36,229 bases of DNA from Phycisphaerae bacterium (GCA_030628445.1 DAOVQV010000001.1:1-36229), one strand, 5' to 3'; shown: positions 34,401 through 36,229, numbered from the stretch's first letter. Notes: generated by a model not told the origin, from the letters alone. A program made the numbers and translations.

Positions 34401-35242
34401 TTACCCAGGATCGTCTGCATCTTGGCAGGATCGATATTCCCATCCAGGACCGCTTTATGGGCCTCCTGGTACTGGCTTTTGGCGGAGACGAACTTATCCA
34501 CCGCTTCGGAAAGCTCGGGGGTCAGCTTATCGCCCTGCCCGCCGCCGGCGTCGGCGGCCTTGGCGGCGATTTTGTCTTTGGTCTGCTCGGCGGCGATCAT
34601 CCGGTCGTAGGCGCCGGCGACGCCGGCGAGACGTTCGGCCTGATCGGGCGCTTTGGCGACCAGGCGGGCCAGTTCGGTCGCTCTGCCCTCACCGCTGGAG
34701 CGGCACAGGCGAATGATGTCGCTGCGGCGGATGTTGCTTCTGCCCAGCTCGTCCATGGCGCGGCGGAAGGAGTCCTTGGCGTTTTGGGTCTTCTCGCCGG
34801 CAGCGGGCATGCGGACCTCGATGCGGCTTTCGCCCAGCGGGTGCCATTCCAGCGAACGCAGACCCTCCGGGTCGATCCGGTCCTTCAGTATCCGGATGAT
34901 CCGGTTGATCAGATCGCCGCGGGCCTTGCTTTCGCCCTTCAGCACCTCCAGCTGCTCGGCGTCGCGGTCGATAACCTCCCTAAGCTGCTCGACCTTATCC
35001 GTCTGCCCGGCCGCTTCGGCTGCTTGCAGCTCGTCTCGGCGGTCCTTTAACGACTTGGTGAGCCGGTCGATCTCAGGTCTGTTGGTGCGGACCTCAAAGA
35101 CCAAACTGTGACCGCCGCGCAGGTCAATTCCCTGCTTCAGCCCGCCTCCGAAGAACAGAGACCCAAGACACACTGCAACCAACAAGGCGACGAACGAAAA
35201 CTTCAGCGGAAGGTTTTTTGCATTCATGTTCAGATCCAACAT
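31490..35242 (-). CDS. secDF: Fused protein translocase subunits SecD and SecF with expanded periplasmic domains
   Basis: The SecD N-terminus is [14 protein letters not shown]. The SecD TM bundle is [28 protein letters not shown]. The SecF start is GIEFSAGT (aa ~768). The SecF TM bundle is [13 protein letters not shown]...[18 protein letters not shown]. Both periplasmic heads carry large charged or coiled insertions. Confidence 0.93.
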   Translation of the reverse strand: [1250 protein letters not shown]

Positions 35243-35345: not shown

Positions 35346-35374
35346 ATTGTCGACGAGCTTAGCAGATCGGTCAA
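35346..35374 (-). promoter_or_regulatory. Candidate sigma70-type promoter for secDF
   Basis: On the minus strand: TTGACC (35374-35369), 17-nt spacer, GACAAT (35351-35346). It lies ~100 nt upstream of the secDF start and downstream of the repeat array. Confidence 0.35.
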
Positions 35375-35425
35375 GCAAAAGATCAGCGGCGCAAGGTCCG
35401 CCAAAGCACGCGCTAGGTCCACCAC

Positions 35426-35560
35426 AAGCCCACGGTAGCTACGTAAAAGCCCACGGTAACTATAAAAAAGCCCACGGTAACTGCGTAAAAGCCCACGGCA
35501 GGCCTGCCGTGGGCTTAAACAAGCGCGCCGTGGGCTTGAACAAAGCGCGCCGTGGGCTTT
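35426..35560. repeat. Phased array of seven copies of AGCCCACGG / CCGTGGGCT (4 direct + 3 inverted, 21-22 bp spacing)
   Basis: AGCCCACGG occurs at 35427, 35448, 35469 and 35490. CCGTGGGCT occurs at 35507, 35528 and 35550. The central perfect palindrome AAGCCCACGGCAGG/CCTGCCGTGGGCTT spans 35489-35516. Confidence 0.9.
35485..35516 (-). terminator. Likely intrinsic terminator of purH (central palindrome of the repeat array)
   Basis: On the minus strand a perfect 14-bp-arm palindrome can form a ~12-bp stem after loop opening. It is followed directly by UUUU (35488-35485). It lies ~107 nt after the purH stop. Confidence 0.6.
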
Positions 35561-35622: not shown

Positions 35623-36229
35623 TTAATGATTAAAGTGCCTCGCCCCCGTGAAGATCATCGCCAAGTTCAGTTCATCCGCCCGGGCGATAACGTCGTCGTC
35701 CTTCTTTGACCCGCCGGGCTCGATCACGGCCGTGGCGCCGATATCCACCGCCCAGTCCAGCGAATCGGGGAACGGGAAAAACGCGTCCGACGCCAGAACG
35801 CAACCGGCCGGGTCCACCTCGTGCCCGCCGCCGTAGCCCCGAGCGATCTGCCCGGCCAGGCGAGCGGAGTTGACACGGCTCATCTGGCCCGCGCCGGCCC
35901 CCAGCAGCGCCCGGTCCTTCGCCAGCACGATCGCGTTCGACTTGACGTGCTTGCAGACCAACCAGGCGAAACGCATGTCGCAAAGCTCGCCTTCCGACGG
36001 TGCGCGTTTGGTTACAACCTTCCAGTCGCCCTCGTTGCAGCCCAAAAGGTCGCGGTCCTGGACCAACATCCCGCCGACCACGTACTTGAGGGCCTTCTCG
36101 CTGTTGCGCTGGGACGTTAATTCGCCGACCTCAAGGATCCGCACATCCTTACCCCACCCGTCCCGAGCCTTGATGAGCTCTATGGCGCCCTCGTCAAACC
36201 CGGGTGCGATGACCATCTCCGCGTAGAAC
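35623..36229 (-). CDS. purH: Bifunctional AICAR transformylase / IMP cyclohydrolase, C-terminal part (5' end beyond the window)
   Basis: The C-terminus ...IEPGGSKKDDDVIARADELNLAMIFTGARHFNH and upstream KSNAIVLAKD...GAGQMSRV...ASDAFFPF match the conserved AICARFT domain end of PurH. The frame is open to the window edge. Confidence 0.93.
   Translation of the reverse strand, partial: FYAEMVIAPGFDEGAIELIKARDGWGKDVRILEVGELTSQRNSEKALKYVVGGMLVQDRDLLGCNEGDWKVVTKRAPSEGELCDMRFAWLVCKHVKSNAIVLAKDRALLGAGAGQMSRVNSARLAGQIARGYGGGHEVDPAGCVLASDAFFPFPDSLDWAVDIGATAVIEPGGSKKDDDVIARADELNLAMIFTGARHFNH

Follow-up and report, generated by a model that had tools for sequence, protein, structure and literature searches.

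A repeat array between purH and secDF in a Phycisphaerae bacterium: a probable purH terminator with tandemly amplified hairpin arms

INTRODUCTION

Between purH and secDF of a Phycisphaerae bacterium lie seven copies of a short sequence, four direct and three inverted, arranged about a perfect palindrome. Does this array end transcription of purH, does it bind a protein, is it the remnant of a mobile element, or has it no role at all? A first-pass annotation proposed that the RNA could form one canonical terminator, nested helices with symmetric internal loops, or alternative pairings, and that spacing by two helical turns would also suit an iteron-like array of cooperative protein-binding sites upstream of secDF; it judged the whole to be more elaborate than a simple terminator. 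Here we weigh these readings.

RESULTS AND DISCUSSION

Two arrays of hairpin arms meet at a perfect palindrome

The sequence analyzed here (the window, 36,229 nt) is an entire contig (C197) of a metagenome-assembled genome (MAG), G000, which comprises 1.94 Mb in 396 contigs, is 73% complete and has 61.7% G+C. On the + strand, the 9-mer AGCCCACGG starts at 35427, 35448, 35469 and 35490, in steps of 21, 21 and 21 bp; its complement starts at 35507, 35528 and 35550, in steps of 21 and 22 bp; and the innermost pair forms a perfect 28-bp palindrome, AAGCCCACGGCAGG/CCTGCCGTGGGCTT. All of this is exactly as first annotated. Ten nucleotides, AAGCCCACGG, are identical in 7/7 arms (four direct and three inverted, 21-22 bp apart), and the exact 9-mer occurs at one other site in the 36-kb window, 5592, within coding sequence. 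Along the minus strand, the order is three 5′ arms and then four 3′ arms, the latter followed in turn by U4, U6, U4 and U2, again in line with the original description. The A-run said to precede every copy is lacking at the leftmost + strand copy, where there is only AA (cacAAGCCC). A degenerate fifth 3′-type unit, absent from the annotation, occupies about 35389-35425; TRF calls it at 35389-35429, with a period of 21 and 1.9 copies. The coordinates of these elements and of the flanking genes are collected in Table 1.

Table 1. Features of the purH-secDF region of the window
Feature	Position	Strand	Basis or remark
purH, 3′ part (AICAR transformylase/IMP cyclohydrolase)	35623..36229	-	ORF list; Pfam PF01808 AICARFT_IMPCHas, 1.8e-37
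purH stop codon	35623-35625	-	
Outermost 5′ arm on the transcript, AAAGCCCACGG, then spacer CGCGCTTTGTTC	35550..35560	-	Also in conspecific L323
Second 5′ arm unit, AAGCCCACGG + CGCGCTTGTTT	35517..35537	-	21-bp unit missing from conspecific L323
Central palindrome, AAGCCCACGGCAGG/CCTGCCGTGGGCTT	35489..35516	.	12-bp stem, GGCC loop
U-run of the central hairpin, UUUU	35490-35487	-	Two U inside the palindrome
Second 3′ arm, CCGTGGGCTT, into UUUUUU	35464..35477	-	Partner of the second 5′ arm in the nested fold
Third 3′ arm into a four-U run, spacer TTTTATAGTTA	35445..35456	-	Without counterpart in L320, L324
Fourth 3′ arm, then UUGUGG	35426..35435	-	Unpaired in the nested fold
Degenerate 3′-type unit, 21-bp repeat GGCTTGTGGTGGACCTAGCGC / GTGCTTTGGCGGACCTTGCGC	35389..35425	-	Overlaps arm 4; orthologous to CCGCGTGCTGTGGCGG in L320
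secDF promoter-like block, TTTTGCTTGACC-N17-GACAAT	35346..35380	-	Consensus scan; downstream of the array
secDF fusion gene, 1245 aa	31490..35227	-	SecD_SecF_C, 3.7e-61; ATG at 35227

The spacers tell the two sides apart. Those on the left read TAGCTACGTAA, TAACTATAAAA and TAACTGCGTAA; those on the right, read as arms, are CGCGCTTGTTT and CGCGCTTTGTTC. The two sets are unrelated in sequence, which indicates that two separate tandem arrays meet at the palindrome and argues against a single inverted duplication. The left spacers vary in 5/11 columns, compared to none in the 7/7 perfect arms (hypergeometric p about 0.02, by our own count). A generic detector of a hairpin plus an extra arm gave 7 matches genome-wide and 0 in a Markov-shuffled control, and hence the structure of the array is far from what chance would produce.

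Position and predicted folding are those of a terminator

Pfam matches bear out the original gene calls, purH and secDF, both on the minus strand. The purH 3′ part is 66-80% identical at the amino acid level to its counterparts in same-family and same-order relatives. The window SecDF is listed at 1245 aa in the protein collection; an alternative ATG lies at 35242, homologues align from MNAKN, and the named homologues come from MAGs of Phycisphaerae and Planctomycetota. The spacer between the genes is 395 bp, and the 28-bp palindrome is extragenic.

A promoter-like block, TTTTGCTTGACC-N17-GA(C/G)AATGCC, is kept before secDF in eight relatives (L240, L241, L252 and L320-L324), down to 68% SecDF identity, the remaining spacer being unalignable or divergent. 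This conservation predicts that secDF has its own promoter downstream of the array. The first arm begins ~62 nt past the purH stop and the array ends 51 bp before the secDF -35/-10 block, so that the hairpin region, about 62-106 nt after the stop codon, falls where a terminator is expected, after a gene end and ahead of the next transcription unit. Two relatives (G016/L252 and L322) carry unrelated GC hairpins with T-runs at the same position in the spacer.

The central hairpin is a stable, GC-rich stem-loop (12-bp stem, 4-nt loop, -22.9 kcal/mol) with UUUU after the stem, and the next two 3′ arms lead into UUUUUU and UUUU. On the + strand, the inverted arms are followed by TTAAAC, TTGAAC and TTTCC; as these tails lack T-runs, the U-runs are specific to the transcribed (minus) strand. 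A 226-nt region is predicted to form a nested three-helix fold (-116.6 kcal/mol, z = -6.9 versus shuffles), and in transcripts ended in silico at successive U-runs, a GC helix abuts that U-run each time. The central hairpin was not called by a simple terminator scan, which needs at least 5 T in 8 where the tract here has 4 U, and in Rfam, searched with the spacer under a permissive E-value, the best match was sX11, at 26 bits versus a gathering score of 70.

Of the folds first proposed, the terminator and the nested helices are supported; the extra folds and U-runs are probably incidental. The nested three-helix fold, although real as a computed structure, is probably a consequence rather than the purpose of arm amplification, and the extra U-runs probably serve at most as back-up terminators.

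Arm number varies within the species

By way of SecDF homologues we reached a conspecific sequence from another metagenome (L323), which matches the window at 99.5% identity across 6,740 bases. The sole gap is one 21-bp arm unit, leaving L323 with two 5′ arms compared to three in the window, so that in these two short-read assemblies unit number differs between close strains, as in a VNTR. Two sequences from a sister species (L320 and L324) are 93.5-93.7% identical. Here, the central arms are perfect, the U-run is kept and the centre carries one substitution; the outer arms have 1-2 mismatches each, and there is one unit fewer per side than in the window. The outer 5′ arm has degenerated to GCTCGCGG in L320 and GCTCACGG in L324, and the 3′ outer arms to CCATGGGT (second 3′ arm) and CCGCGTGC. 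Presence in both species indicates that the array is older than their split. As judged from these alignments, it appears to be expanding and homogenized in the window lineage and decaying in the sister lineage, with the central hairpin constant.

Beyond these species, the array is lost from view. L321 and L322 (72% and 68% SecDF identity) keep the promoter block and show no trace of the motif, and a search of 60 relatives (36 of the same family) for the direct-pair pattern found no array. The GTDB relatives are distant (≤79-80% identity in the purH C-terminal region); the closest keep the purH-secDF order without the array, and in the closest of all (G023) the two genes are separated by only about 35 bp, with no terminator. 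The first-pass annotation had counted absence from the same spacer in close relatives, coupled with a lack of any transcript end or protein binding, as evidence against its reading. That absence is found in part: the array is variable or absent, and the central hairpin is kept in L320, L323 and L324.

The central palindrome belongs to a dispersed family

By its layout, the central palindrome can be assigned to a dispersed family with the consensus (g)aaaGCCCACGG-N8-CCGTGGGCttt(c), that is, arm-N8-arm, located at gene ends in several Planctomycetota. In G000, a 73%-complete MAG in 396 contigs, we counted four exact arm-N8-arm hairpins and two variant ones. Besides the array, exact copies lie on contigs C22, C85 and C277 and a variant on C69, with A-/T-run flanks. 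The G000 family hairpins sit within a roughly 100-bp dispersed module, and those on C85 and C69 follow a secreted dockerin-like paralogue. By the first-pass annotation, hundreds of occurrences at gene ends genome-wide would have marked the motif as a generic REP-type terminator element; copies in G000 are far fewer, but the motif does fall within a dispersed family of gene-end palindromes.

Other genomes hold more copies: 15 exact ones in G357 (centre GTTGCAAC), 30 in G359 (centre ACGGCCGT) and 37 in G360 (centres ACGATCGT and ATCATGAT, plus other subfamilies), against 0-1 copies of the reversed pattern used as a control. The genomes with 30 and 37 copies are both Gemmataceae MAGs. The centres are genome-specific, and the arm is common to distant Planctomycetota. 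Among 40 copies from two genomes, nearly all match the consensus with A3/T3 flanks and typically lie 5-40 nt past a stop codon; 6-7/40 (about 15%) have extra arms, with periods of 10, 15, 17, 19 or 21 bp. Extended palindromy of the flanks, as expected if the palindromes had inserted into pre-existing hairpin loops, was seen in only 4/40. The palindromy of the 8-nt centres extends to positions where a hairpin allows no pairing, which suggests a process at the level of DNA, or a dimeric protein, and not RNA folding alone. The family is patchily distributed (9/301 sampled genomes of the phylum), and full-text literature searches, with 8-mers and for Planctomycetota terminators or palindromes, returned no description of it.

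G000 contains other repeats of note. Immediately past a tRNA gene 3′ end (C113:802-832) comes a related hairpin, AAGCCCACGCC...GGCGTGGGCTT (AAGCCCACGCCAAGGTTGGCGTGGGCTTT); judging from its sequence, it is a terminator-type hairpin with an arm nearly the same as that of the array. A roughly 160-bp element at C85:2219-2378 (L004:948-1107) has 42 blastn matches, of which 24 are at least 120 bp and many have 88-95% identity; it may be a MITE, or else coding sequence for an N-terminal or leader segment that several genes share. A further repeat family consists of 10-bp-phased TCGCAG / GCCGGC arrays (TRF periods 20 and 30) beside a conserved block, ggtaaaaacgataac..ctcgcggccgtaa, with intergenic sites at L018:908-984 (C277), C4:6916, C75:2646, C123:12364, C224:2014, C263:508 and C303:49.

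Arm multiplication at other loci

We searched the JGI metagenomes and one genome per GTDB species for pairs of direct arms with a spacing of 19-23 bp. Together with the two sampled genomes, these sources yielded 36 non-redundant hairpin-plus-arm arrays. The loci share one architecture, in which a single hairpin with an 8-nt, usually palindromic centre is accompanied by one to four extra copies of one arm. In GTDB, such loci are almost confined to Planctomycetota (Gemmatales, Planctomycetales, Pirellulales and Phycisphaerae); arrays of 21-bp period in which all arms are direct and no hairpin is present come from other phyla and are probably coding repeats. Arm repetition is not a general property of hairpins, since the generic detector returned from G000 only the array and one unrelated 17-bp array. 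In G000, the 17-bp sequence GCGCGCTCCAAAATGGA is repeated perfectly in tandem at C295:4409-4474 (3.9 copies), and its unit contains the palindrome GAGCGCGCTC.

The periods of the related arrays are 10, 15, 17, 19, 20, 21, 22, 23, 38 and 41 bp, and in the two-sided arrays found elsewhere (L141 and L048) the periods are unequal. The spread from 10 to 23 bp argues against helical phasing. One of the two-sided arrays lies outside Planctomycetota, in a Gemmatimonadaceae MAG (L048:1643-1805), where five direct and five inverted GCCCACGG arms, spaced at multiples of 7, 14 and 21 bp, follow a stop codon. Among the arrays that could be classified by a crude GC3 gene call, extra arms showed no orientation bias (10 downstream versus 7 upstream of the hairpin). 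This lack of a downstream bias argues against a selected back-up-terminator role for extra arms in the family.

G000 itself contains a second arm array, at C85:2526-2780 (L004:1255-1509), made of about six 41-bp units that end in the palindrome GCCCACGGCCAGCTGGCCGTGGGC. Each unit consists of a GCCCACGG-type 3′ arm and a T-run, and the array lies 3′ of a gene for a 672-aa dockerin-like secreted paralogue. Units of this type are also found at two contig ends (L003:1-100 and L007:1-100), from which it follows that arm arrays probably break the assembly.

RAYT genes are associated with other repeats

At 28 bp, the array palindrome falls within the 20-40 bp of extragenic REP palindromes, and we looked for a mobilizing gene tied to the family in G000; none was found. 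GTAGCC(N)ACGG is not enriched in that genome (5 occurrences, versus 10 in the control). G000 has two RAYT-like Y1 transposase genes (PF01797, 32 and 35 bits), on C88 (L277:1360-1968) and C248 (L272:1432-1929), and neither is flanked by the array palindrome. The C88 gene is flanked by hairpin repeats, GTAGGCTGGGCC.../GTCCCGGCGCGCCGGGAC, and the C248 gene by GCGAGCGCTAAGCGAGCGG-type repeats; with repeats of their own, these REP/RAYT systems are distinct from the GCCCACGG family.

In a Planctomycetaceae MAG (G358), L271:1100-2010 encodes a 155-aa RAYT flanked by inverted GTAG-tagged hairpins, GTAGCCCACGGC-N4-GCCGTGGG (GTAG-CCCACGGC). This is a textbook REP/RAYT layout, and its stem has the CCCACGG core in common with the array. 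In G357 and G360, the RAYT-flanking REP is GTAG-CCACGGG, with about 100 pairs in G360, and is separate from the AAAGCCCACGG palindromes. In G360, a Fimbriiglobus MAG, the roughly 100 inverted GTAGCCACGG pairs have their members roughly 145 bp apart (e.g. C19:1765-1918 and C137:8133-8287) and form a large REPIN-like population separate from the 37 AAAGCCCACGG palindromes. Given that the RAYT genes of G000 have other flanks and that the RAYT-linked REPINs of G357 and G360 are another family, we do not claim that RAYTs mobilize the array family.

A purH terminator with amplified arms is the favored explanation

The reading that we consider probable is that the array is the intrinsic terminator of purH, drawn from a dispersed REP-like palindrome family, with arms that have been amplified in tandem in a VNTR-like manner. 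The core would be a Rho-independent terminator, formed by the 28-bp palindrome and its U-run between the purH stop codon and the secDF promoter; we infer from this layout that it ends purH transcription. Arms of family palindromes would be prone to tandem duplication, and the left and right arms would have been amplified independently, as their unrelated spacers indicate, giving three 5′ arms on one side and four perfect and one decayed 3′ arm on the other. Slippage during replication, or template switching, would add and remove units.

Arms that stay perfect beside variable spacers call for either conversion or selection, and what keeps them identical may be conversion of short tracts between arms or else selection for pairing. 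Perfect arms and palindromic centres are in keeping with template switching at the DNA level or with such conversion between arms; a dimeric protein with sequence specificity would account for them too. As a by-product of amplification, the RNA or single-stranded DNA could form the nested three-helix hairpin, with helices abutting U-runs and hence the potential for back-up termination. For the purH-secDF array itself such a back-up role of the extra arms is possible in the folding model, in which each of the three helices runs up to a U-run and the two sides have spacers of matched length.

Alternative explanations

The array may instead play no part in transcription and be a by-product, either selfish or mutational: a REP-like palindrome would have landed in the spacer, its arms would have expanded by slippage or template switching, and purH termination, if any, would be achieved otherwise, e.g. 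by Rho. Copy number that is polymorphic within the species, outer arms that decayed in the sister species, extra arms with no orientation bias relative to transcription, centres that are palindromic beyond the needs of folding, the patchy spread of the family across the phylum and the short, terminator-free purH-secDF gap of G023 are all what this account would lead one to expect. It does less well with the central hairpin and U-run, which have been kept between two species while adjacent spacer units changed, with U-runs confined to the transcribed strand, with family members consistently placed just past stop codons with A3/T3 flanks, and with the unrelated terminators at the same position in two relatives. 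On balance, we regard a pure by-product as unlikely, if the most serious competitor to the terminator reading.

A second possibility, which we put forward as distinctly speculative and rather improbable, is that AAGCCCACGG is the recognition word of a trans-acting factor conserved across Planctomycetota, which seeds the 30-bp gene-end palindromes and the half-palindrome arrays. Candidates for the factor would be an enzyme of the HUH/RAYT-like type, a different nuclease or recombinase, or a protein that binds DNA or RNA. If so, the arrays would be footprints of a new REP-type mode of amplification and would also work as tunable multi-stop terminators or insulators.

A related proposal is that the array serves, as double-stranded DNA, as a platform to which a protein binds cooperatively (iteron-like, or BIME-like for a nucleoid protein or gyrase), its seven 10-bp sites all facing the same side of the helix, upstream of the secDF promoter. 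Spacing of 21/21/21 and 21/22 bp, 10-mers that remain perfect while spacers diverge, and a central pair of sites forming a perfect palindrome, as expected for a dimer, speak for such a platform, and a conserved trans-acting factor would fit a 10-mer arm common to distant Planctomycetota in which the centres differ. Yet periods in related arrays vary (10-23, 38 and 41 bp), site number varies within the species, the outer sites have decayed in the sister species despite a conserved secDF promoter, and relatives with the same gene order have no sites. Conservation together with a regulated gene and a cognate binding-protein gene is not seen: the promoter is conserved and the array is not, and the neighbours are purH and secDF only, with no regulator or Rep-type gene adjacent. 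Moreover, the asymmetry of the A/T-runs tracks the transcribed strand and not the dyad symmetry. The iteron-like, two-helical-turn interpretation of the first-pass annotation is not supported by these comparisons, and a protein platform now seems to us decidedly improbable.

A transposon remnant or miniature with multiple transposase sites (4 + 3, as in Tn7-type ends), or a MITE, is a very remote prospect: four direct and three inverted sites do face each other, at a spacing close to the 22-bp length of TnsB-type sites, but the whole unit occurs only once in G000 and has neither cargo, nor terminal TGT/ACA, nor a target-site duplication, the left and right spacers are unrelated, and units are gained or lost singly. 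We rejected Tn7-like ends and MITEs for want of terminal motifs, target duplication and a second copy; oriC, parS, dif and CRISPR readings seem a poor fit to the sequence or its context.

Implications

At the level of the locus, a REP-like terminator with minisatellite arms is a cheaper account than a new regulatory array. For Planctomycetota genomes more broadly, the analysis describes a little-described 30-bp perfect gene-end palindrome, with a phylum-wide arm and a genome-specific centre, of which ~1/7 gain arms. Should the arms affect how efficiently transcription terminates, they would offer a simple way for read-through from one gene into its neighbour to vary heritably and reversibly; and should the palindromes be spread by a dedicated enzyme, that enzyme would be new. 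In practical terms, arm arrays could serve to tell strains apart, and MAG contigs are likely to break at them.

Comparison with known systems

Uptake sequences of Neisseria and Haemophilus are roughly 10-nt words that are often inverted after genes, where the inverted pairs act as terminators; they number thousands per genome and are tied to DNA uptake. The array family likewise has a conserved ~10-nt word and inverted pairs after genes, but only tens of copies.

With iterons and phased operators, the array shares identical short sites about two helical turns apart beside a promoter. It differs from them in that it is not conserved, varies in copy number, belongs with arrays of unfixed period, lacks a cognate binding-protein gene and has flanking A/T runs that follow the transcribed strand.

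REP, BIME and REPIN elements offer a closer parallel. Like them, the array family consists of short GC-rich extragenic palindromes at gene ends, of which some genomes carry dozens; copies are alike within a genome, their spread is patchy between genomes, and units with flanking DNA can form ordered tandem arrays. For REP and REPIN units, ordered tandem arrays have been described (Bertels & Rainey 2011, PMC3116915; Di Nocera et al. 2013, PMC3733652). However, the array family has no GTAG or CGTC tag, with AAAG, CAAG or TAAG in its place; its palindromes are perfect, where those of REPs are imperfect; and its copy number in G000 is low. What is repeated in the array is half a palindrome (arm and spacer), in contrast to whole REPs or REPIN doublets, and its orientation is four direct then three inverted, whereas BIMEs alternate.

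Bacterial VNTRs, or minisatellites, have in common with the array a 21-22 bp unit and a one-unit difference between near-identical strains; the array stands apart in that its unit is a hairpin arm and that two arrays of opposite orientation abut at a palindrome. Finally, intrinsic terminators share with it a GC-rich hairpin and an immediate U-run on the transcribed strand, located between a stop codon and the next promoter. Compared to single or tandem terminators, the array has repeated arms (3 and 4-5 copies), nested helices with roughly 11 x 11-nt internal loops, a stem that is perfectly palindromic through its centre, and a stem sequence common to other gene-end hairpins in G000 and other Planctomycetota. 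The traits of the array are those of known kinds of element, namely a terminator, a REP cluster and a VNTR, and not of a new kind.
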